Assembly (NCBI GenBank): GCA_026398255.1
Contig: JAPLTG010000007.1
Coordinates: 41,786-105,785 of the forward strand
Direction: 5' to 3'
Source of the DNA: Verrucomicrobiota bacterium
Lineage (GTDB): Bacteria > Verrucomicrobiota > Verrucomicrobiia > Chthoniobacterales > Terrimicrobiaceae
Length of the DNA: 64,000 nt
Both the position numbers and the translations under genes were made by a program. Of the stretch, positions 8,905-53,860 are shown piece by piece; position 1 is the first letter of the stretch, and each line of letters opens with the position of its first letter. The notes beneath the pieces were generated by a model. The model saw only the letters and a program-made list of their open reading frames with translations. It did not search any database and had not been told where the DNA came from.

Positions 8905-10131
8905 TCAACCGCCCAAAACGACGCGGGCTGCTTCGAAGCCAGACTGAATCGCGGCTTGAATGCTCGCGCCATTTTTCCAATCCCCACACGCAAGAACGCC
9001 GTTCGGCAAGTGAGGCTTGGGTTTTGAGGCGAAGCCGGGCGGTTGGTCAGGGACAGCGTTTGGAACAAAAATGGTCTCAAGGGGAATGAGCGATTCTCGC
9101 GCATGGGGAAAAATGGCGGCGATTTCCTCTGCGGCGCCGGAGACAAGTTCGGCGCGTTCCAATCCCTCAAAATTCAAAATGGAAGCCGAGACAAGATGCC
9201 AACCGGCCGGGGCAAATTCCGGCGCGATGTTGGTGATCTGGACGAAGTGCCGAACGAGGCGGCGGGCGCCAGCGGGAAGAATCAGGCACGGGCGGTCGTA
9301 GAGGGAGATTTTGGATTTGAAATAAACAACCGCCACGCCACGCGGCGCAGGGGGCGGTGGCTGGTGGAGGAGTTGGTGAAGCCAGGATTCATCGAGCGCC
9401 AGAACGAGCCGCGAGAAAGGGAGGATTTCGCCGGACTCGAGAATCACGCGGTCGCCATCGATCGCGATAACTTTGGTATTCAGCCGGATTTTTTGCGGGG
9501 GGAGTTGCGCGGCGATGGACTCGGGGAGCGCTTGGATGCCGCCGGCGGGAATCCAAGCGCGGCCGGTGGCAAATTTTTTGAGGTAGTATCGAAAGAGCGA
9601 GGAACTGGTGGAGAGCTCGTTGTCGAGCAGCACACCGCCGAAAAATGGCTGGGCGAAGCGGGAGAGGAATTCCTCAGAAAATCCACGCCAAAGCAAAAAC
9701 TCACGGGTGGAAAGATCGTTTGCCGAAGCGCAGGCATCGAGGAGCGCACGATCCAGGGAGAGCAAAACCTCCGCTCCCAATCGCGCGAGGCGGAGTTTGT
9801 CACCGAACGACAAGGCATCGCCCGCGATGGCGACGATGGGATTTTCCAGCGGGCTGGCGAGTCGGGAGAATTTGCCGGAATGGTGAATCAAAGCGCCGGA
9901 CTCGAACCAGCGGGGCTGCAGCGCCGCAACATCCACAACCTCCCCAACCGCGCGGTAGGAACTGAGGACGACCTGAAAGCCATGATCGAGCGTGAAGCCG
10001 TCGCGGTGCGTGGTGCGTTGGCGTCCGCCAACCTGCGGCGCGGCCTCGAGCAAAAGAAAATCCCGACCGGCGCGTTGTAGCTCCAGCGCGCAGGACAACC
10101 CGGCCAAGCCTGCACCGACGACGAGAATCAT
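8905..10131 (-). CDS. NAD(P)/FAD-dependent oxidoreductase (amine oxidase / desaturase-like)
   Basis: Dinucleotide-binding N-terminus MILVVGAGLAGLSCALELQRAGRDFLLLEAAPQVGGR. Start moved to the ATG at 10131, because the listed start would overlap leuA. Confidence 0.8.
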   Translation of the reverse strand: MILVVGAGLAGLSCALELQRAGRDFLLLEAAPQVGGRQRTTHRDGFTLDHGFQVVLSSYRAVGEVVDVAALQPRWFESGALIHHSGKFSRLASPLENPIVAIAGDALSFGDKLRLARLGAEVLLSLDRALLDACASANDLSTREFLLWRGFSEEFLSRFAQPFFGGVLLDNELSTSSSLFRYYLKKFATGRAWIPAGGIQALPESIAAQLPPQKIRLNTKVIAIDGDRVILESGEILPFSRLVLALDESWLHQLLHQPPPPAPRGVAVVYFKSKISLYDRPCLILPAGARRLVRHFVQITNIAPEFAPAGWHLVSASILNFEGLERAELVSGAAEEIAAIFPHARESLIPLETIFVPNAVPDQPPGFASKPKPHLPNGVLACGDWKNGASIQAAIQSGFEAARVVLGG

Positions 10132-10135
10132 TCGG

Positions 10136-11797
10136 TCAGGCAAGAGCGCGGTTGAGGGCGCTGATGATGGCGTGGATCGAGGCGAGTTCGATGTTCGTGT
10201 CGCTGCCGACGCCGTAGAGGACGCGGTTGCCTGGGACTTTGATTTCAATGTAGCTCACCGCGCGGGCGTCGGCTCCGGCGCCGAGGGAGTGCTCGGAGTA
10301 GTTGAGGATTTCGACGCGTGGGAGTTCGGTTTTCGCGAGGCAATCAACGAACGCGGCGATCGGGCCGTTGCCAGTGCCTCGGACGGTTTGGGTTTTTCCC
10401 AAGATCTCGAGGTCGGCTTCGACCGTGACCTGCTCGGCGCGCTCGATGGCGCGGAATTCCCCGAGGTGGACGGCGCCGGAGCGGACGACGAAGGTTTTTT
10501 GGAACAACTCGAAAATCTCCTCCGGCTCGAGCTCGGTGCCTTTTTCGTCGGAGACGGTGTTTACGAGGCGGCCGAGGTTCTTTTGAAGGCCTTTGGGGAG
10601 TTGGTAGCCGAATTCCTTCTCGAGCACATAGGCGACGCCGCCTTTGCCGGATTGGGAGTTGATGCGGACGATAGCTTTGTAGCTGCGGCCGACATCGGCG
10701 GGGTCGATCGGAATGTAGAGCACATCCCATGGCTGGCCGGGGCTTTGGCGGGCCCAGGATTTTTTGATGGCGTCCTGATGCGAGCCGCTGAAGGCCGTGA
10801 ACGCAAGGTCGCCGGCGTAGGGGTGGCGCGGGTGGACCTCCATGCGGGTGCAGCGCTCGTAGATTTCGCGGATGGCGTTGAGCTTTCCAAAATCCAGACC
10901 GGGGTGGATGCCGTGTGTGTAGAGGTTCAGCGCGACAGTGACGATGTCGAGATTGCCGGTGCGCTCGCCGACGCCGAAGAGGGTCCCTTCGACGCGGTCG
11001 GCTCCGGCGAGCAGGCCGAGCTCCGTGGCGGCGGTGCCGGTTCCGCGGTCATTGTGGGTGTGGAGCGAGAGGATCGTTAGGTCGCGGCGGGTGAGGTGGC
11101 GCGACATCCACTCGATCTGGTCAGCGTGGATGTTCGGCGTGGCGTATTCGACGGTGGCGGGGAGGTTGAGGATGATCTTGTTGTCGGGCGTCGGCTGCCA
11201 GACATCGGTGACGGCCTCGCAGATTTGCAGGGCGAAATCGAGTTCCGTGCTCGTGAAGCTCTCGGGCGAGTATTCGAGCTGGATGCGCGAGCCGGAGTCC
11301 ACGTGCGGCTGCATCGATTTTTTCAAAAACGAAACGGCGTGTGTGGCGATGCCGACAATTTGCTCGCGGGTGGAGGCGAAGACATAGTCGCGCTGTTTCG
11401 GCGAGGTGGAGTTGTAGAGGTGGAAGATGATGTTCCGCGCGCCGCTGAGGGCCTCAAGCGAGCGGGTGATGAGATCCTCGCGGCACTGGCAGAGGATTTG
11501 GATCGAAACATCGGCGGGAATGCGGTCCTCCTCGATCAGGCGGCGGCAAAAATCGAACTCGATCTGCGAGGCGGAGGGGAAGCCGATTTCGATCTGCTTG
11601 AAGCCGATGCCGACGAGCATTTCGAAATACTCGAGCTTCTCCTCGACGCTCATCGGCTGCGCGAGGGCCTGGTTGCCATCACGCAAATCCACGCTGCACC
11701 AGATCGGCGCGCGGCTCAGCACGCGGCTCGGCCATTGGCGGTCAGGCAGATCGACCTGCGGAAACGGCCGGTATTTCGTGACGGGCGGTGGTTGCAT
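10136..11797 (-). CDS. leuA: 2-isopropylmalate synthase (long/LeuA2 type, 553 aa)
   Basis: Starts MQPPPVTKYRPFPQVDLPDRQWPSRVLSRAPIWCSVDLRDGNQAL, has the HTHNDRGTG motif and a C-terminal regulatory domain. Start moved to 11797. The listed 720-aa ORF has a non-homologous 167-aa extension. Confidence 0.9.
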   Translation of the reverse strand: MQPPPVTKYRPFPQVDLPDRQWPSRVLSRAPIWCSVDLRDGNQALAQPMSVEEKLEYFEMLVGIGFKQIEIGFPSASQIEFDFCRRLIEEDRIPADVSIQILCQCREDLITRSLEALSGARNIIFHLYNSTSPKQRDYVFASTREQIVGIATHAVSFLKKSMQPHVDSGSRIQLEYSPESFTSTELDFALQICEAVTDVWQPTPDNKIILNLPATVEYATPNIHADQIEWMSRHLTRRDLTILSLHTHNDRGTGTAATELGLLAGADRVEGTLFGVGERTGNLDIVTVALNLYTHGIHPGLDFGKLNAIREIYERCTRMEVHPRHPYAGDLAFTAFSGSHQDAIKKSWARQSPGQPWDVLYIPIDPADVGRSYKAIVRINSQSGKGGVAYVLEKEFGYQLPKGLQKNLGRLVNTVSDEKGTELEPEEIFELFQKTFVVRSGAVHLGEFRAIERAEQVTVEADLEILGKTQTVRGTGNGPIAAFVDCLAKTELPRVEILNYSEHSLGAGADARAVSYIEIKVPGNRVLYGVGSDTNIELASIHAIISALNRALA

Positions 11798-12490: not shown

Positions 12491-12562
12491 TCGGATTTGG
12501 TTTCGCTGGCATTGAGGAAATTGGATTCCATGCCGTCTCGGACGCGGCATACTCCGCGCCGC

Positions 12563-13348
12563 ATGAATCCACTTCCGCTCGTGATCGCTGGAACCGCTCT
12601 CGCCATGGCGATGATGGTGGTTGTGTGGTTTTTTGCCAAGCGGATGGATAACGCGGGGATCGTTGATATTTGGTGGTCATTCGGCTTCACGCCGGTGGCG
12701 CTTTTTTATGGAATCTTCGGCAGCGGACACATGATTCGCAACGGCCTCATCGCGGCAATGGTCTGCGCGTGGAGCCTCCGTCTCGGCATGCATCTCTACA
12801 AACGCGTGATGTCCCACCACCCGGAGGAGGACCCACGCTACGCCGATCTCCGGAAGCAATATCCCAAACGCACCTGGTTGATGTTTTTTGGATTCTTTCA
12901 GCTCCAGGGATTGCTGATCGGGTTGTTGTCTCTGCCCATCGCCCTCGCTTGCGCGAACCCTTCGCCGGGCGTCGGTTTTTTTGAAGTTGCGGGCGTCCTG
13001 CTCTGGCTCGTTGCAATCGGAGGAGAATCGATCGCCGACATGCAACTCGCACTCTTCAAGGCTCAGCCTGCATCGAAAGGCCGCGTGTGCGATTTCGGCC
13101 TGTGGAAATACTCGCGCCACCCGAACTACTTTTTCGAGTGGCTCGTCTGGATTGCGTATTTCGTCTTTGCACTCGGCTCTCCGTGGGCATGGGTCGGACT
13201 GGCGAGCCCGCTTCTGATGCTATTTTTCCTCACCCGAATGACCGGCATCCCTCCCGCCGAAGCCCGCGCCCTCGCCTCCCGCGGCGACGCCTACCGCGAC
13301 TACCAACGCCGCACCAGCGCCTTCATCCCTTGGTTTCCAAAATCATGA
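12563..13348 (+). CDS. DUF1295 family membrane protein (steroid 5-alpha-reductase/ICMT-like fold)
   Basis: Multi-TM protein with the motif GLWKYSRHPNYFFEWLVW. This family is usually encoded next to CFA synthase. Start moved to the ATG at 12563. Confidence 0.8.
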   Translation: MNPLPLVIAGTALAMAMMVVVWFFAKRMDNAGIVDIWWSFGFTPVALFYGIFGSGHMIRNGLIAAMVCAWSLRLGMHLYKRVMSHHPEEDPRYADLRKQYPKRTWLMFFGFFQLQGLLIGLLSLPIALACANPSPGVGFFEVAGVLLWLVAIGGESIADMQLALFKAQPASKGRVCDFGLWKYSRHPNYFFEWLVWIAYFVFALGSPWAWVGLASPLLMLFFLTRMTGIPPAEARALASRGDAYRDYQRRTSAFIPWFPKS

Positions 13349-13353
13349 ACTCG

Positions 13354-13378
13354 CGCAGAGGCGCAGGGACGCAGAGAG
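13354..13378 (+). repeat. Left arm of an inverted-repeat bracket (CGCAGAG-triplet type)
   Basis: CGCAGAGGCGCAGGGACGCAGAGAG. It matches the reverse complement of 13768-13793 at 22 of the first 23 positions. Confidence 0.8.
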
Positions 13379-13385
13379 TTTTGAA

Positions 13386-13799
13386 ATGAGCGAAAACGAG
13401 ATTGGGACAATTGTGATTGAGGAAGCGATCCAACTTCACCGGGAGCTTGGCCCGGGTTTGTCCGAGTCCGTTTATGAAGTCGTCCTTGCGGATTCTCTCA
13501 AAAAACGCGGCTTGGATGTGCGCAGGCAAGTGCCCGTGCCAATCCATTATCAGGGCATCAAATTCGATGAGGGATTTCGCGCCGATCTCATCGCGGAAAA
13601 CAAAGTGCTTCTCGAACTCAAATCCGTGGAGGCCGTGAATCCAGCCCATAAGAAACAGGTGCAGACCTATCTGCGGCTGACTGGATTGAAGCTCGGCTAC
13701 TTGCTCAACTTCGGTGAGGCTATTCTGAAAACCGGCATTACCCGATGTGTCAACGACCTTGAAGAATCTCCTCTGCGTCCCAGCGCCTCTGCGGGATAA
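13386..13799 (+). CDS. GxxExxY family protein (PD-(D/E)XK nuclease-like fold)
   Basis: Contains GPGLSESVYEVVL (GxxExxY), then ...FRADLIAENKVLLELKSV...YLRLTGLKLGYLLNF. The last ~10 codons are read from the right repeat arm. Confidence 0.8.
   Translation: MSENEIGTIVIEEAIQLHRELGPGLSESVYEVVLADSLKKRGLDVRRQVPVPIHYQGIKFDEGFRADLIAENKVLLELKSVEAVNPAHKKQVQTYLRLTGLKLGYLLNFGEAILKTGITRCVNDLEESPLRPSASAG
13768..13793 (-). repeat. Right arm of the inverted-repeat bracket
   Basis: CTCCTCTGCGTCCCAGCGCCTCTGCG. A near-identical arm occurs at 52231-52257. Confidence 0.8.
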
Positions 13800-13812
13800 T
13801 CCTTTTCACCAC

Positions 13813-14853
13813 ATGATCCAACTCGACGACCTCCTCGCCCGAAATCTCCTGCCCGATGCTGCCATCCGGCTTGGCATCCGAAATCTCCTCTCCAAAAAAC
13901 TCCGCGAGGAAACGCGCGAGAACGCCATTACCCAATCCGAAGCGCTGGCTGCTTTTGTGGACGAACTCAAGCGCAGCCCGATCGCCATCAAGACCGCCGC
14001 CGCGAATGAGCAGCACTACGAAGTTCCTACCGATTTCTTCAAACTCGTCCTCGGCCCCCGCATGAAATACAGCTCGGGCTACTGGCCGCGCGAGGACACG
14101 ACTTTCGCCGAATCCGAAGAGGCGATGCTCGCGCTCACCTGCGAACGCGCGGAACTCACCGACGGCCTCGACATCCTCGAGCTCGGTTGCGGCTGGGGCA
14201 GTCTCACGCTTTGGATGGCGGAGAAATTCCCCGCCGCTCGCATCACTGGCGTCTCAAATTCTTCGACCCAAAAACTCCACATCGAAGCCGAAGCCGCACG
14301 GCGTGGTTTGGGCAATGTCCGCATCGTCACGGCGGACATGAACGACTTTGAGGCCGGCGACTCGGCATTCGACCGCGTTGTCTCCGTGGAAATGTTCGAG
14401 CACATGAAAAACTACCAGCGCCTCATGGCAAAGGTCGCCCGCTGGCTCCGCCCGGGCGGCAAGCTGTTCGTGCACATCTTCACCCACCGCGAATTCGCCT
14501 ACCACTTTGAGGGCAAGGATCCCTCGGACTGGATCACACGCTATTTTTTCGACGGCGGGACGATGCCTTCCGACGACCTCCTGCTCTACTTCCAGGACGA
14601 TCTCGCGATCGAAAAACACTGGCGCGTCTCCGGCACCCATTACCAACGAACCTCCGAGGCTTGGCTGGAAAAAATGGATGCGAACGAGACGACGATCACT
14701 CCAATCCTCGAAAAAACCTATGGCGGCGAGAACACCGCCAAGTGGCGTGCCTACTGGCGCGTCTTCTTTATGTCCTGCGCGGAACTCTGGGGCTTCCGTG
14801 GTGGCAACGAATGGCTCGTGAGCCATTACCGGTTTGTGAAGCTTCGCAGCTGA
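13813..14853 (+). CDS. cfa: Cyclopropane-fatty-acyl-phospholipid synthase family SAM methyltransferase
   Basis: Contains ANEQHYEVPTDFFKLVLGPRMKYSSGYW and the SAM motif ILELGCGWGSL. Start moved to the ATG at 13813, since the upstream part of the listed ORF is repeat-derived. Confidence 0.85.
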   Translation: MIQLDDLLARNLLPDAAIRLGIRNLLSKKLREETRENAITQSEALAAFVDELKRSPIAIKTAAANEQHYEVPTDFFKLVLGPRMKYSSGYWPREDTTFAESEEAMLALTCERAELTDGLDILELGCGWGSLTLWMAEKFPAARITGVSNSSTQKLHIEAEAARRGLGNVRIVTADMNDFEAGDSAFDRVVSVEMFEHMKNYQRLMAKVARWLRPGGKLFVHIFTHREFAYHFEGKDPSDWITRYFFDGGTMPSDDLLLYFQDDLAIEKHWRVSGTHYQRTSEAWLEKMDANETTITPILEKTYGGENTAKWRAYWRVFFMSCAELWGFRGGNEWLVSHYRFVKLRS

Positions 14854-48473: not shown

Positions 48474-48586
48474 TTGACCACAGAGGACACAGAGAGCACA
48501 GAGTTTTTCTAACGGAATTGTTTTATGCGAAATTCCTCCCTCAAAGCTCTTCTCCCCTCCGTGTGCTCTGTGTCCTCTGTGGTCAA
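48474..48586. repeat. CACAGAG-triplet inverted-repeat hairpin (best-preserved copy)
   Basis: TTGACCACAGAGGACACAGAG (48474-48494) is the exact reverse complement of CTCTGTGTCCTCTGTGGTCAA (48566-48586). The arms continue imperfectly inward to 48503 and 48557. Confidence 0.85.
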
Positions 48587-48595
48587 TTCTTCTAA

Positions 48596-49285
48596 ATGAT
48601 CCTCGAGCTTTTGGAGTGGGCAGTGACACCCTGTCCGTGGTTCGCGCGAAGGAATGGATTGCTCGCCGCTCAGATTGGCATTCGCCATCGCGTGAAACGC
48701 TGCCGAGCGACTTGGAATGGACATCTGGAGGCATGCAGAAAATTTGTCGCCGACGCAGTCGGATCCAGAACTGCTGACGAAAACCTCGTGATTCTCGGGA
48801 GTGGACACCTGAACGATTTCGACCTCGCATTTCTTCAACGCCGTTTTCAAAAAATCACGCTCGTCGATGCGCTCCATCCGATCGAAATTCAAATCCAAGC
48901 GAGTCTTTCCCGAGGCCGCCTTCGCCTGATCACGACCGATCTCTCCAGCCCCACCGCCGAGATCGAGGATTTGGTTTCGCGTTCGAGTTGGACCATTTCA
49001 AGCTGCCTGCTTTCCCAGCTCCCGCTCTTTTCCAATGAGGACTCCCCCGCCCTCTTCGATCGACACCTTGCGCTTTTGCAAAAATCTCCCCGCGCCGTGC
49101 TCATCAGCGATGTCGCGAAACGCCTCGGCTCCGCCCCTTGGGAATCATTGATCGAAAACCATCCCCTCCCCCACCCCGCCGCCGAGTGGTCATGGCTCAT
49201 CTCCCCGCCCGGCGAGTCCGTCCCCGATCCCGAAGAACGCCTCGTCCAAGCCTGCTTGATGCACTCGGACCCTTCAGACAGTTGA
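48596..49285 (+). CDS. Hypothetical protein (229 aa)
   Basis: Long ORF with host-like GC and no family recognised. Its last ~30 codons have a diverged duplicate at 52455-52544. Confidence 0.55.
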   Translation: MILELLEWAVTPCPWFARRNGLLAAQIGIRHRVKRCRATWNGHLEACRKFVADAVGSRTADENLVILGSGHLNDFDLAFLQRRFQKITLVDALHPIEIQIQASLSRGRLRLITTDLSSPTAEIEDLVSRSSWTISSCLLSQLPLFSNEDSPALFDRHLALLQKSPRAVLISDVAKRLGSAPWESLIENHPLPHPAAEWSWLISPPGESVPDPEERLVQACLMHSDPSDS

Positions 49286-49290
49286 TCTCC

Positions 49291-49316
49291 CGCAGAGGCG
49301 CATCGATGCAGAGGGG
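49291..49316 (+). repeat. Left arm, CGCAGAG-triplet type, bounding the low-GC island
   Basis: CGCAGAGGCGCATCGATGCAGAGGGG. It shares CGCAGAGGCGCA...GCAGAG with the arm at 13354 and starts 5 nt after the stop of the 48596 ORF. Confidence 0.7.
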
Positions 49317-49811
49317 AGATTTTGGGTTGGGAGTTTTTCGATGGCCGGAATTCAATTTAATATCTGGTCCACCTGTAAATGTCCTATCGGCATTTTTAGG
49401 ATGTCGGCCGAAATGATCTCTCGATTCCTCCAAAAACTCGGTCGCGCGATCCGCCAATTTCTCCCCCCAAGCCGCTCTGCAAGGGACTCCCCTCACCAAT
49501 CTGAATTTCGCTTTTGAACCATTAACACAACTTCCACCCAGTCGGCGATCGCAGGAAAATCTCCCGCTTAGGCGCAGGAATCTTGAGTGATGGGCCCCCT
49601 ATCTCAATAGTCCCCGCCGAGCGGACCCAAGTTTCAAGCGCGAACACTCCATTTCTTTTCAATCTCCCGCTGAGCACGCGAGGTGCAGAGGAAGGGATTT
49701 TCGAATTGTCCAAGATTTTGCGTGGCTGCACCGGTGCCCTTAATCAAAAAAAATCTTGTGATTCCAGAAATCCCACACATAAACTGCTGTTATTAAGCTT
49801 AACCGGAATAC

Positions 49812-50276
49812 ATGTTCACCTACCGCGATAAACAATCAACTCGTCACAGCCGCATACGATCTTTTTTGAAAACCGATCCGTTTGTGGCAGTGATTCTATC
49901 GGCTATCGATTTTGAATGGACAGTCCGGAGGGCGATCCTAGGTCTCTCAGGATTGCCCACAAAACCAATTCATGAAATTTTCAAAAGTGAGCGTTCAGGC
50001 GGTCTCTCTGGACTCCAAAATCACTGGAAAAAGCTTGTCAAGTCGCGGCTCGGCTCCGATCTCGCATCGATCGTCCCCAACTGGGAATTTTTTTCTAATC
50101 GTGCCTTTGGGTTAAGAAATAAGTTAGTCCATGGAGCTGAGGGCAGAGTTACCCCAGAGCATGCAGGGAAAATCGTTGATTCGATTCTCGCCGGTTCAGT
50201 TGCTGTTGCGAATTATGCCGAAGCTAACAATGCGACCATCTTTGGAAAGAAAATCAGGCGCTTGAAGACCAGATAA
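49812..50276 (+). CDS. Hypothetical protein, putative HEPN-fold (Rx4H) domain
   Basis: 154 aa and predicted helical by composition. It contains AFGLRNKLVHG, with R102-x4-H107 (nt 50115-50132), the spacing of the HEPN RNase motif. The assignment rests on this motif only. Confidence 0.5.
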   Translation: MFTYRDKQSTRHSRIRSFLKTDPFVAVILSAIDFEWTVRRAILGLSGLPTKPIHEIFKSERSGGLSGLQNHWKKLVKSRLGSDLASIVPNWEFFSNRAFGLRNKLVHGAEGRVTPEHAGKIVDSILAGSVAVANYAEANNATIFGKKIRRLKTR

Positions 50277-50303: not shown

Positions 50304-51812
50304 ATGAATAACATCCTATCCATTTGCATTTTACTAGTATTACAAGCTTCGCTTCTATTTTCCCAGACGCCTTGGCAGGACTTCGTTAATGAGCAGAAAA
50401 CCAAAGCAGATGCTGGGGATCCAGATGCTCAAGGGATTTTGTCTACTTTAATTCAGCTCGGAGCCGCTTCTGTATCAAATGATCAAGCTTACTACCTTGC
50501 AATAAATTCTACAAATGCCTCAAGTTCTTTTGGTAAATATGCCCTTGGGCGTTGTTATGAATTAGGCATCGGAGTAGACAAGAATGACTTAAAGGCCCAC
50601 GATTTGTTTACCCAGTCAATTCCAAATCTTAAAAATATGGCAGTCCAAGGAAATTCATATGCTGCCTTTCTGATTGGAGGAGCTTATCTTAAAGGTCGCG
50701 GAGTTGACAAAGATGAGACTGAATCAGACAAATGGTTTTTAAAGTCTGCTGAAGATGGTAATGCGTTCTCCCAATATAACATTGGAAAGACCTACCAAGA
50801 AGGCCAAGGAGTAGAAAAAGACCCTGCTGCATCGGCTAAATGGATGCAATTATCAGCTGAAAATGGATATAAGCTTGCTCAAGTAGCATTAGGTGTTTAC
50901 TTTAATATTGGATATGGCGTCGCTAAAGATGATACCGAAGCTGCAAAGTGGTTTCACAAAGCAGCCGAGCAAGGGGATGCAAATGCACAAAGTAGCTTGG
51001 GCTTTTGCTACCAATACGGCAAAGGGGTATCAAAAGACGATGCCAAGGCTCTTAAATGGTATCTCAAAGCCGCTGAGCAGGGAGATGCGCTACATCAATC
51101 AGCTTTGGGCCTATATTATTCTAATGGAGGTGGATTAAAAGAAACTGACAATATGGAATTTGCTACTAAATACCTTGCCCAAGCTAGAGAAGAGGCTGTA
51201 AAGTGGTTTCGCAAAGCTGCAGAGCAAGGAAATTCGGGAGCTCAAAATAACTTAGGTGCATGCTATAAAGATGGCAAAGGAGTTCAAAAAGACATTACGG
51301 AAGCTATCAAATGGTTCCAAAAATCAGCTGAACAGAATGACCCTCATGCTCTAACTAATTTGGGAGATTGTTATTTTGAAGGCGTAGGTTTCCCAAAAGA
51401 TTTAGAAGCAGCAGAAAAATACTATCGTAAGGCAATTAGCCAAGGTTTTAGTGAAGCTGAAAAAAAACTTAATAAGATACCTTCAATACGGAGCCAGAAA
51501 ATTAAGGAAAATATTATTGATGCTAAGAAGAGGTATATGGAAATGGCAATTGACGATGCGCCTGTCCTCTCATCTGGACCATCAAAAGAAGTTATTATTG
51601 ATGGAATGTTGCCTTTATGCAGTGTTTTAGAAAATCAATATAAAGACACTTCATTTAAAATCCAGCGTGGCAACACTCAAATATCTAACGGCTACAAAGG
51701 TATTCCAATTGGTGTGGAAATGTTTCCAATCAGATTAAGTGGCTCCCAAATACAATTTACATATTATTTCTATCAAGATGAATTCGATGATTGGAAAATT
51801 GTAGAAAAGTAA
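50304..51812 (+). CDS. Secreted Sel1-like repeat (SLR/TPR-family) protein with an unassigned ~110-aa C-terminal domain
   Basis: Signal peptide MNNILSICILLVLQASLLFSQ, followed by about 9-10 Sel1 repeats (e.g. AKWFHKAAEQGDANAQSSLGFCYQYGKGVSKDDAKALKWYLKAAEQGD). Confidence 0.85.
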   Translation: MNNILSICILLVLQASLLFSQTPWQDFVNEQKTKADAGDPDAQGILSTLIQLGAASVSNDQAYYLAINSTNASSSFGKYALGRCYELGIGVDKNDLKAHDLFTQSIPNLKNMAVQGNSYAAFLIGGAYLKGRGVDKDETESDKWFLKSAEDGNAFSQYNIGKTYQEGQGVEKDPAASAKWMQLSAENGYKLAQVALGVYFNIGYGVAKDDTEAAKWFHKAAEQGDANAQSSLGFCYQYGKGVSKDDAKALKWYLKAAEQGDALHQSALGLYYSNGGGLKETDNMEFATKYLAQAREEAVKWFRKAAEQGNSGAQNNLGACYKDGKGVQKDITEAIKWFQKSAEQNDPHALTNLGDCYFEGVGFPKDLEAAEKYYRKAISQGFSEAEKKLNKIPSIRSQKIKENIIDAKKRYMEMAIDDAPVLSSGPSKEVIIDGMLPLCSVLENQYKDTSFKIQRGNTQISNGYKGIPIGVEMFPIRLSGSQIQFTYYFYQDEFDDWKIVEK

Positions 51813-52230
51813 ATAACCGGAACCAGCTGTTGGGGACTTTTCGAGTAAAGGCTTATGTCCTTCACATTGTCATATTTTGTAGATGCTCTGAAAGCAGGAT
51901 AGCCAAAAAACATTCGCAGAAATTACGGTGTGGGAGTTTCTTTCTGCCATAAACTCCCAATTTCTCGCCCGTCCGACAATTCAACCCTCCAGTAAATCAC
52001 CCAGAGGGACGATGCCGATGCGGGACGAGGTTTGGCCGTGGATGATTGTGCCGCAGCGGTCGTCGACATTTGTGCACACAGCCTCCCGCTTGTCGGGTGC
52101 GGAGCGGAGGTGGGGTCCGCGTGCGGCTGATTATGCGTGAGCGTGGTCAGCTACATGTCATTTTTTCAGGAGACCTTTATGAGTGGATGCCGTCCAGCGT
52201 GGGAAAATCGTAATGTGTTACCATAATTCC

Positions 52231-52257
52231 CCTCCGCGTCCCAGCGCCTGCGGGAGG
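52231..52257 (-). repeat. Right arm, CGCAGAG-triplet type, bounding the low-GC island
   Basis: CCTCCGCGTCCCAGCGCCTGCGGGAGG. The stretch GCGTCCCAGCGCCT is identical to the arm at 13768, and its reverse complement pairs imperfectly with 49288-49316. Confidence 0.7.
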
Positions 52258-52454
52258 AGTTGGTTTGTTTGAGACGGCGCTTTTTCCCCCTTAGCCTTGG
52301 GTCCGCTCGGCGAGCCTCCCCTACCCAAGGCTTTTCGATTCGTGCTGATCGCTGTTAAAAATGCACCGGATTCCAACTCACTCCGGCGCTTATTTACAGC
52401 GCTGAGGCCATTTCAATCATTGTGTATAAACTTCGTATTTTGCTTCGTGTGAGG

Positions 52455-52991: not shown

Positions 52992-53768
52992 TTGCCAATG
53001 AGCGCGGATTTTTTTTCGGCCGGATCCTCGGACTACGCGAGATACCGCCCGCGCTATCCTGAGGATTGGTTCGATTGGCTTGCCGCTCAGTGTTCCGTGC
53101 GGAGTTTGGCGTGGGATTGCGCCTGCGGGAGCGGTCAAGCCACCGAGGAATTGGCGCGCCGGTTCGAAAAAATCATCGCGACCGACGTCAGCTCCGCCCA
53201 ACTCCGGAATGCTCCCCTCCTCCCGAATGTCGAATGGAGATTGGCTTCCGGCGAAGCGAGTGGATTGGATGCCAGGAGTATCGATTTGGTAACGGTCGCC
53301 CAAGCTCTCCACTGGCTGGACCTGCCGAGGTTTTGGCATGAGTGCCGTCGCGTTTTGAAGCCCGAGGGGATTATCGCGGTCTGGGGCTATGGCATCGCGA
53401 GCTTGAGTCACCCATCGGTCAATCAGGTTTTCCAGGATTTCTATCACGGAGTGGTTGGCGAATATTGGCCGAAGGAACGCCGGATCGTCGAAGAGGGCTA
53501 TGTGGGCGTCGATTTTCCATTTCAAGAAATCCCTGGGTCGGCCTTTGAGATGGTGCAATCTTGGGATGTCGAGCATCTCGCGGGATACTGCTCGAGTTGG
53601 TCCGCCACAGACCGCTACCGCAAGGCAACGGGCCATGATCCGATCCCTGAGTTGAGGGCGAAACTGACGCGAGAACTTGGTTCTGCAACCACTCAAATCC
53701 TCTGGCCGTTCTTCGCTAGAGCCGGCCGAATGTTCCATGTGGAACAAAACGCAGAAGAAGAAAATTAA
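52992..53768 (+). CDS. Class I SAM-dependent methyltransferase
   Basis: Motif I is AWDCACGSGQATEEL and the post-II region is VAQALHWLD...LKPEGIIAVWGY. The C-terminal tail and the stop codon lie in repeat elements. Confidence 0.8.
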   Translation: MPMSADFFSAGSSDYARYRPRYPEDWFDWLAAQCSVRSLAWDCACGSGQATEELARRFEKIIATDVSSAQLRNAPLLPNVEWRLASGEASGLDARSIDLVTVAQALHWLDLPRFWHECRRVLKPEGIIAVWGYGIASLSHPSVNQVFQDFYHGVVGEYWPKERRIVEEGYVGVDFPFQEIPGSAFEMVQSWDVEHLAGYCSSWSATDRYRKATGHDPIPELRAKLTRELGSATTQILWPFFARAGRMFHVEQNAEEEN

Positions 53769-53860
53769 CCACGGAGGGCACGGAGGGCATGGAGAATGAA
53801 GGAAGAATTGCCTTCGCTGTCTTGATTTTCCTCTGTGCTCTCGGTGTCCTCTGTGGTCAA
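53765..53860. repeat. CACGGAG/CACAGAG-triplet inverted-repeat hairpin
   Basis: Left arm TTAACCACGGAGGGCACGGAGGGCATGGAG (53765-53794). Right arm CCTCTGTGCTCTCGGTGTCCTCTGTGGTCAA (53830-53860). The TAA stop of the methyltransferase (53766-53768) lies inside TTAACC. Confidence 0.75.

Follow-up and report, generated by a model that had tools for sequence, protein, structure and literature searches.

The window analysed here is a stretch of 64,000 nucleotides from a Verrucomicrobiota bacterium (assembly GCA_026398255.1, contig JAPLTG010000007.1, positions 41,786 to 105,785), and coordinates given without a locus number (L) are window coordinates. It contains a cassette of approximately 450 bp, in which a gene of the GxxExxY family, encoding a predicted nuclease, lies between two inverted arms and is wedged between two genes for lipid modification, a DUF1295-family gene and a cfa-like gene, whose frames once overlapped. 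The locus, including a short upstream open reading frame (uORF), is composed as follows.

12527..13348, + strand: upstream host gene of the DUF1295 family (PF06966, E 1.2e-67), with its stop codon TGA at 13346-13348
13345..13389, + strand: uORF of 14 codons, read from translation as MNSRRGAGTQRVLK and a stop codon, spanning the left arm
13349..13376, + strand: left arm X, with an outer ACTC followed by the tandem octamers GCGCAGAG GCGCAGGG ACGCAGAG at 13353-13376
13386..13799, + strand: GxxExxY/PDDEXK_3 open reading frame (ORF) of 137 aa, with residues 1-124 as the core and residues 125-137 as read-through of the right arm
13771..13799, + strand: right arm X', CTCTGCGTCCCAGCGCCTCTGCGG followed by GATAA, the reverse complement of three octamers
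13800..13812, + strand: decayed right-hand copy of the duplicated target, just upstream of the cfa start (intact, at 19 bp, in locus L007)
13813..14853, + strand: cfa-like downstream host gene (CMAS/cyclopropane-fatty-acyl-phospholipid synthase family methyltransferase; PF02353, E 1.8e-44)

Each arm consists of three tandem octamers of the form RCGCNGAG preceded by (T)CTC, and the right arm is the complement of this, followed by GAGAA or GATAA. In the window the arms form an inverted repeat of 26 nt (13351-13376 and 13771-13796) that is 92% complementary, with 394 nt between the two copies. Matches to the arm as a 23-mer occur at 13354 on the + strand (0 mismatches) and at 13771-13793 on the − strand (1 mismatch), when 0.01 would be expected by chance in the window. 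A preliminary description of this DNA had stated that the left arm starts 5 nt past the DUF1295 stop, that the right arm ends 19 nt ahead of the cfa ATG (13793 and 13813, respectively), and that the arms are reverse-complementary at 22 of 23 positions; all of these statements were reproduced. It had also taken the end of the ORF for simple read-through of the right arm. The C-terminal 10-13 residues (SPLRPSASAG) are indeed encoded by the arm, the predicted local distance difference test score (pLDDT) of the AlphaFold model is below 50 for residues 125-137, and the TAA stop falls within the outer end of the arm (GGGATAA). A second GxxExxY copy was not found within the 64-kb window.

The reading frames of the locus overlap in a chain. 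The DUF1295 protein ends in FPKS, a C-terminus kept in orthologues, and its stop codon overlaps the ATG of the uORF at 13345 (ATGA). The uORF crosses the left arm, and its TGA overlaps the ATG of GxxExxY (again ATGA). The GxxExxY frame then runs across the right arm to a stop codon 13 nt short of the cfa ATG, and at the equivalent site in L009 the TGA of GxxExxY overlaps that ATG. The chain shows how an insertion can sit in a translationally coupled junction without breaking it.

The encoded protein matches PF13366 (PDDEXK_3; E 5e-39, 133.7 bits, cut-off 22) and TIGR04256 (GxxExxY; E 3e-39, 134 bits, cut-off 35), and the signature that the preliminary description had recognized is present as G24-L-S-E27-S-V-Y30. 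Across 42 sequences, E27, D67, E77, K79 and Q91 are invariant and Y95 is nearly so. The pattern E ... D ... ExK ... QxxxY agrees with the motif order of RecB and Cas4. The AlphaFold model (pLDDT 87) has a core of alpha-alpha-beta-beta-beta-alpha-beta, and its best structural matches in the PDB were Cas4 SSO0001 (4ic1, TM score approximately 0.5), the lambda and LHK exonucleases, and tRNA-splicing endonucleases; a PDB search with the protein sequence gave no match. The protein is modelled as a Cas4/RecB-like PD-(D/E)XK fold of approximately 125 aa with its catalytic residues intact, and nuclease activity is predicted from this fold and motif. The alpha-beta core and the motif order are shared with Cas4/RecB nucleases. 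Unlike Cas4, GxxExxY has no Fe-S cysteine set (only C121 is conserved), is approximately 75 residues shorter, and has no CRISPR or cas genes nearby. Searches with PADLOC and PHROGs gave only weak Cas4-like matches (Cas4 profile E 0.005-0.04) and no defence-system match above noise, and the likeness to Cas4 is limited to these E values and the TM score above. No transposase profile was found in the cassette, whose sole ORF is GxxExxY. The ratio of nonsynonymous to synonymous substitutions (dN/dS) was 0.05-0.25 in every comparison, indicating strong purifying selection. PF13366/TIGR04256 is a very large family without an assigned function, with 17,017 clusters at 50% identity (E up to 0.001) in 1.84 billion representatives.

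The contigs of cfa orthologues with 83-86% identity were checked for the DUF1295-cfa junction. Four relatives (L086, L087, L088 and L090) have an empty site, where the DUF1295 and cfa frames share 4 nt (ATGA), the stop of one overlapping the start of the other. Filled sites with arms occur at the identical junction in five species representatives of Terrimicrobiaceae or Chthoniobacter-like bacteria (L005-L009), with identities of 83-98% for DUF1295, 88-99% for cfa and 82-97% for GxxExxY. In L007, a perfect direct target duplication of 19 bp (TTTCCAAAATCATGATCTC) flanks the cassette; its left copy retains the DUF1295 stop and its right copy retains the cfa start. L089 (2444-2490) has a DUF1295-cfa spacer of 40 nt, TGAACTCGCCGCCGGGGCTTGCATGGCGTTTTCTCGCATCCGC, which begins TGAACTCGC CGCCGGGG, can be aligned to the cassette's left arm and right-hand flank together, and may be a one-arm footprint left by cassette loss. 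Aligning this spacer across relatives had been proposed in the preliminary description, which expected DUF1295 and cfa to be direct neighbours and the ORF to be an insertion of approximately 440 bp into the operon spacer. The four empty sites with overlapping genes agree with both expectations, the insertion being a discrete one of approximately 450 bp. A GxxExxY gene carried here by relatives without repeat arms, an outcome that the preliminary description had named as refuting, was not what the relatives showed, as their copies at this site have arms.

The synonymous divergence (dS) of GxxExxY between the window and L007 or L009 was saturated (1.1-2.2), with a dN/dS of 0.06. The dS of the host neighbours was comparable (1.15 for cfa against L009 and 0.81 for DUF1295 against L007). 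Since the synonymous divergence of the cassette is comparable to that of its neighbours and the site is filled across species, a single entry before the species split, followed by purifying selection, is indicated. Judged by these comparisons, the DUF1295-cfa cassette is an old insertion that has been inherited vertically. The fabD-fabG site in Sphingomonas provides a second verified pair of empty and filled sites, with insertion into a housekeeping operon: it is filled in Sphingomonas parapaucimobilis (L091 1471-1899) and empty in Sphingomonas paeninsulae (L176) and other Alphaproteobacteria. No hairpin-only intermediate was seen at DUF1295-cfa or fabD-fabG, where relatives were either empty or filled.

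The bracket is not confined to this locus. Among the 120 closest proteins in a database of 5.8 billion sequences, the frequent C-terminal ends PLRPSASAG, PQRLCVSAG and PLCASAPLRE are translated arms, and over-extended gene calls begin with ISRRDAEAQR, which is also a translated arm. Some proteins, 263-295 aa long, contain two GxxExxY domains (P0241, P0243, P0244, P0248 and others) and are probably products of tandem cassettes in which the arms between the genes are translated in frame. A scan of a genome collection gave 80 loci at 66-97% identity. They span Verrucomicrobiota, Kiritimatiellia, Lentisphaerae, Desulfobacterota, Nitrospirota, Bipolaricaulota, Thermotogae, Acidobacteriota, Planctomycetota, Spirochaetota, Bacteroidota, Bacillota and Gammaproteobacteria, more than 10 phyla altogether. 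At the strict threshold, both nearest flanking sites are a proper arm pair in 46 of the 80 loci; the remainder mostly have a degenerate arm on one side or an intervening local hairpin. The left arm has its start 25-35 nt upstream of the ATG; the right arm lies over the last 25 nt of the ORF or past its stop. The association of GxxExxY genes with an arm pair, suggested from the single window copy, is therefore general, and copies elsewhere carry arms too.

Nucleotide similarity between loci in unrelated contexts ends with the cassette. In 2417 of 2464 locus pairs it was confined to a segment from approximately −50..0 of the ATG through approximately +0..+40 past codon 127. Over the cassette alone, DNA identity reached 89.6% between a deltaproteobacterium and a Nitrospirota member and 89% between Kiritimatiellia and Lentisphaerales. 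By this measure, arms and gene together (approximately 440-470 bp) are the unit that moves between genomes. Only one extra cassette copy was found in 1.1 Mb of flanks. Apparent "flipped" arrangements (X'-gene-X) were considered as inverted cassettes and rejected, as they are explained by neighbouring local hairpins. The neighbours of the cassettes are ordinary housekeeping genes and not defence islands. Co-directional copies, already annotated as GxxExxY genes, were observed inside housekeeping pairs, namely fabD-fabG (L091), radA-FAD protein, and ade-mannose-1-phosphate guanylyltransferase (L094 of Bacteroides finegoldii, L093 of Bernardetia).

More distant homologues (29-56% identity) are bracketed too, by arms of other types with a period of 9 or 10 and the core CRCNGA. 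The arm units are CGCGAAGG between fabD and fabG in Sphingomonas, CACAGAG(G)A in Bernardetia and Bacteroides finegoldii, and CACGGAT with a period of 10 in Treponema and in the second paralogue of L058. L058, from one Verrucomicrobia genome, carries two GxxExxY genes 2 kb apart (10001-10390 and 12508-12870) that are 29% identical, each in its own bracket: the arms are GAG octamers around one gene and CACGGATGA 10-mers around the other. Seeding a metagenome scan with the L058 paralogue yielded a further 80 loci. Within the largest protein cluster of this set, flanking inverted repeats were found in 38 of 55 testable loci, mostly as tandem 10-mers such as AACCGCAGATGAACGCAGATGAACGCAGAT. When all proteins were clustered at 62% identity, two main groups resulted. 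The group of the query (cluster 0) had period 8 in 49 of 57 arms and the core GAG in 133 of 133, and cluster 1 had period 10 in 29 of 38 arms and the core GAT, GAC or GAA in 74 of 75. Arm type, in these sequence sets, is something that follows protein subfamily.

Arms also occur without the gene. The sampled loci (1.1 Mb of flanks) contained 60 local hairpins, in which X and X' are separated by a loop of 12-139 nt. Some are arranged in arrays, at L070 6393-12772, L027 7206-9893, L043 10458-10945 and L046 9784-10760. The array units keep their loops and spacers (period 177 nt in L027), and loop sequences group into families within a genome. GxxExxY remnants lie in three hairpin loops, corresponding to residues 1-41 (L037), 113-125 (L064) and 81-116 (L078), so that at least some hairpins are deletion derivatives. 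Arm similarity within loci compared with that between loci (3.39 vs 4.08 mismatches, p 0.02, 9 hairpins) gives weak support for local proliferation. Long direct repeats around gene-less hairpins were considered as target duplications and rejected, as they are caused by the tandem arrays. A search of Rfam with one hairpin array gave only sub-threshold matches to microRNA-like hairpins.

The sequence of the arms is conserved. An arm scan of 1.1 Mb of related loci (three octamers RCGCNGAG, at least 18 of 21 fixed positions) found 302 sites, and 0 in shuffled loci. The motif positions CGC.G.G do not change among six orthologous sequences, and the x positions and the 9-nt spacer between arm and ATG vary; invariant motif positions amid drifting x positions indicate that the arms are under selection in situ. 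At the variable positions, the Watson-Crick fraction is near the expectation for independent draws (0.35 observed and 0.33 expected at position 12). A permutation test on the gene-bearing cassettes gave 256 paired cells of 405 where 239 were expected, a small excess (z 2.8-3.0), and in gene-less hairpins the pairing at variable positions was below expectation. There is no bias of G.U over A.C on the sense strand (49 vs 39), position 0 differs systematically between left and right arms, the orthologous arms in L007 and L008 are altered without compensation, and both arms lie in translated or translationally coupled regions. Near-chance pairing, the left/right difference and the position of the arms within translated regions point to conserved sequence motifs and not to a helix kept by compensatory change. 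The selection acting on the arms in situ appears, on these alignments, not to be for pairing. The preliminary description had overlooked the tandem-repeat nature of each arm, as well as the gene-less copies and the other arm type in the window; it had proposed a long stem that loops out the ORF, as in rRNA intervening sequences (IVS). The stem is found in the predicted RNA, since the minimum free energy (MFE) and centroid folds of 13335-13815 both pair the two arms (−176.5 kcal/mol, z −4.0); the pairing near chance and the lack of a G.U bias do not agree with a maintained helix. Rfam gave no match at gathering score for 13200-13950, the only hit being mir-357 at 17.7 bits against a threshold of 49.4.

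The cassette appears to depend on its host operon for expression. On the coding strand, no promoter-like site was found inside the cassette, and no terminator-like site was found inside it or at the arms. Both neighbours are co-directional with GxxExxY in 32 loci and both are opposite in 4. Of 42 independent gene-bearing cassettes, 14 have ATGA immediately ahead of (T)CTC and the arm; of the gene-less hairpins, none does. In many copies the ATG lies 1 nt past the third octamer, which places the GAGG of units 2 and 3 at Shine-Dalgarno distance, and the right arm carries CCUC, complementary to the GAGG of the left arm. The promoter-less cassette would be translated by coupling, possibly limited by fold-back of the transcript. 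A comparable case is the fold-back inhibition of transposase mRNA in the insertion sequences (IS) IS10 and IS50, where an element end pairs with the ribosome-binding region of its own gene and limits expression driven from outside. In the cassette, the partner differs in lying approximately 400 nt downstream at the other element end, and the effect is predicted only.

We favour the reading, to which we give about an even chance, that the window feature is a resident copy of a widespread mini-cassette bounded by terminal inverted repeats (TIRs), each of three tandem 8-10-nt units with the core CRCNGA, and that this cassette follows a REPIN/RAYT-like logic with a PD-(D/E)XK enzyme. The arms would serve as recognition sites through their sequence, the probable reader being the cassette's own nuclease. 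Under this mechanism, the nuclease would recognize the three-unit arms as sequence, and its action on them would mobilize or copy the cassette and its gene-less derivatives. The window copy entered the translationally coupled DUF1295-cfa junction and has since been inherited vertically under purifying selection. In the mRNA, pairing of the arms could mask the left-arm GAGG units that would bind ribosomes, and we propose that nuclease synthesis would thereby be limited to ribosomes arriving by coupling. A broader claim is tentative, and we put its chances well below even: GxxExxY cassettes may be an unrecognized class of autonomous mobile element, mobilized by its nuclease acting on the subfamily-specific terminal repeats. 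In most bacterial phyla the nuclease would also drive large hairpin populations without the gene, so that the REPIN/RAYT lifestyle would have been invented twice, independently.

Several observations weigh against these readings. The link between GxxExxY and the arms is one of association. Two Bacillota copies, L071 (1797-2174) and L082 (10001-10378), which are 73-74% identical to the query and 96% identical to each other, are the only armless ones among the 80 loci and show that the gene can persist without a bracket; approximately 30% of the second subfamily sample also lacks arms. The other gene-bearing cassettes showed no target duplication of at least 8 bp beyond control, and short target duplications are not resolvable. 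Near-identical copies at different sites of one genome were not seen in the sampled loci. No phage carriers were found in an IMG/VR pattern scan or among GenBank phages, and plasmid matches were limited to 8 records, all large non-mobilizable plasmid or chromid replicons, so that these searches yielded no vehicle for the cross-phylum spread. Contamination of metagenome-assembled genomes could inflate the apparent spread. In addition, the window copy has been fixed at one site over a dS above 1, its arms and protein being conserved in the manner of host features. A gene that is domesticated or useful to the host would explain such long fixity no less well than an active transposon would.

The same evidence can be read at the RNA level, and we regard this as an unlikely but substantial alternative. 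In the operon transcript the arms would pair over a long range and loop out the ORF, the resulting stem would be cut by RNase III or would sequester the ribosome-binding site, and the cassette would have spread by an unlinked mechanism. In favour of this explanation are the folds that pair the arms, the co-orientation with host operons and the lack of an own promoter-like site, the complementarity of CCUC in the right arm to GAGG at Shine-Dalgarno distance from the ATG, the arms kept at a vertically inherited and apparently immobile site, and the slight pairing excess in gene-bearing cassettes. A pure RNA stem was nevertheless down-weighted because covariation and a G.U bias are nearly absent, with pairing even below expectation in gene-less hairpins. 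The uncompensated changes in L007 and L008 and the failure to match an Rfam family point the same way. A stem needs no tandem repeats of a fixed unit number, gene-less hairpins proliferate without any ORF to regulate, and arm type co-varies with protein subfamily. The likeness to the ORF-bearing 23S rRNA IVS of the Leptospira/Coxiella type is a small ORF within a long inverted-repeat stem in a longer transcript. In contrast to these, the cassette lies in an mRNA operon between protein genes and not in an rRNA helix, encodes a PD-(D/E)XK protein where the IVS encode the four-helix-bundle S23p family, and shows little or no compensatory change in its pairing.

It is also conceivable, at a distinctly low probability, that the hairpins came first. 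REP-like (repetitive extragenic palindromic) hairpins would then be the primary elements, and GxxExxY would be a homing-type nuclease that recognizes its cognate hairpin and copies itself into the loop, or a host-useful defence or repair nuclease that uses the hairpins as landing pads. On this view the cassette would be composite in origin. Gene-less hairpins do outnumber cassettes (60 local pairs vs 46 strict brackets), and a sequence-specific homing enzyme would likewise produce subfamily-specific arms; prolonged vertical inheritance under purifying selection suggests that the gene is of use to the host, and the weak Cas4-like similarity is also in favour of this reading. The direction of change that can be seen is the opposite one, as truncated GxxExxY in three loops shows decay from gene to hairpin, and the two sites with verified empty relatives lack hairpin-only intermediates. 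A defence role is further opposed by the housekeeping neighbourhoods and by the profile searches, which gave no defence-system match above noise.

An integron-type gene cassette, mobilized by an integrase through a folded attC-like site, would also be a promoter-less small ORF co-oriented with upstream transcription and bordered by imperfect palindromes, and hairpin arrays are present in some genomes. We consider it very improbable, because the repeats stand on both sides of the ORF and not as a single 3' attC, arm sequence is conserved and not structure alone, no GTTRRRY-type core was visible on reading the arms, and the cassettes are single and scattered in housekeeping operons, with the one extra copy in 1.1 Mb noted above. 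GC-rich intergenic palindromes are common in bacteria, yet a chance repeat, or intrinsic terminators or REP-like elements flanking an unrelated small gene, can be dismissed almost entirely given the 0.01 matches expected by chance in the window, the 302 arm sites observed against 0 in shuffled loci, the same bracket around homologues in more than 10 phyla and in distant subfamilies, and the lack of terminator-like sites at the arms.

For the favoured reading of a TIR-bounded cassette, the closest known model is the REPIN-RAYT system, which consists of REP doublets and REP-associated tyrosine transposases and is described as mostly inherited vertically (PMC3116915, PMC3337134, bioRxiv 10.1101/2021.07.10.451892). 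As far as these accounts describe it, the shared features are a small enzyme gene flanked by cognate short inverted repeats, a repeat type that co-varies with the enzyme lineage, and the vertical persistence of a given copy under purifying selection. Gene-less palindromic doublets dispersed in the genome may be a further one, in view of the 60 hairpins in the 1.1 Mb of flanks and the solo arms in the window. The differences are that the enzyme here is of the PD-(D/E)XK type (Cas4/RecB/lambda-exonuclease-like) whereas RAYTs are HUH/Y1 (IS200-like) transposases, the arm is made of three tandem units of 8-10 nt whereas a REP is a single palindrome, near-identical cassettes occur across phyla, which suggests horizontal spread, and the gene is co-directional in host operons and translationally coupled.

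Miniature inverted-repeat transposable elements (MITEs) derived from IS, such as the Correia/NEMIS elements of Neisseria, are a second model. The cassette resembles IS and MITEs in having TIRs of approximately 26-30 bp that delimit the unit when empty and filled sites are compared, gene-less derivatives by internal deletion, insertion in operon spacers, and hairpins in read-through transcripts. It differs from them in having no recognized transposase family, in TIRs that are themselves tandem repeats, and in that no general target duplication of 8 bp or more was found beyond the 19 bp at DUF1295-cfa in L007. To our knowledge, approximately 450 bp is far below the size of any autonomous IS, and if the cassette is an autonomous mobile element it would be the smallest known in bacteria. 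In the literature searched on GxxExxY, PDDEXK_3, the arm sequences, IVS proteins and PDDEXK combined with TIRs, we found no description of this architecture.

Cassettes with cognate arms, arm types that track protein subfamilies, and derived hairpins give an otherwise anonymous hypothetical nuclease a defined candidate substrate on which it can be tested. Should the nuclease act on the arms, it would represent a new enzyme class for the proliferation of repeats and MITEs and possibly a compact sequence-programmed nuclease. Such activity would also explain the GC-rich hairpin repeats that abound in Verrucomicrobiota, Desulfobacterota, Bacteroidota and other phyla, and it would be the source of spurious peptide tails in gene calls (..PLRLCASAG, ISRRDAEAQR..).

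A Hamming scan located two further solo arms in the window.

49285..49323, + strand: solo degenerate X arm CCGCAGAGGCGCATCGATGCAGAG, not a local hairpin
52222..52260, − strand: solo degenerate arm copy, whose + strand reads CTCCGCGTCCCAGCGCCTGCGGGAGGAG

The second of these shares a clade-specific variant, GCGTCCCAGCGCC, with the right arm of the cassette at 13771-13793. The two solo arms face each other over a low-GC island of 2.9 kb (34-47% GC, vs 56% for the window), which carries an unassigned 154-aa ORF (49812-50276) and a Sel1-repeat gene (50304-51812). The window also contains two strong intergenic hairpins, at 48475-48590 (RNA MFE −62.4, z −10.4) and 53766-53860 (−53.1, z −7.9). Both have arms built from three tandem 9-mers and belonging to a second type (TTGACCACAGAGGACACAGAGAGCACAGAG ... 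CTCTGTGTCCTCTGTGGTCAA), the one that brackets the GxxExxY of Bacteroides finegoldii in L094; no cognate gene for it is present in the window. The hairpin at 53766-53860 begins in the stop-codon context of the upstream methyltransferase gene.

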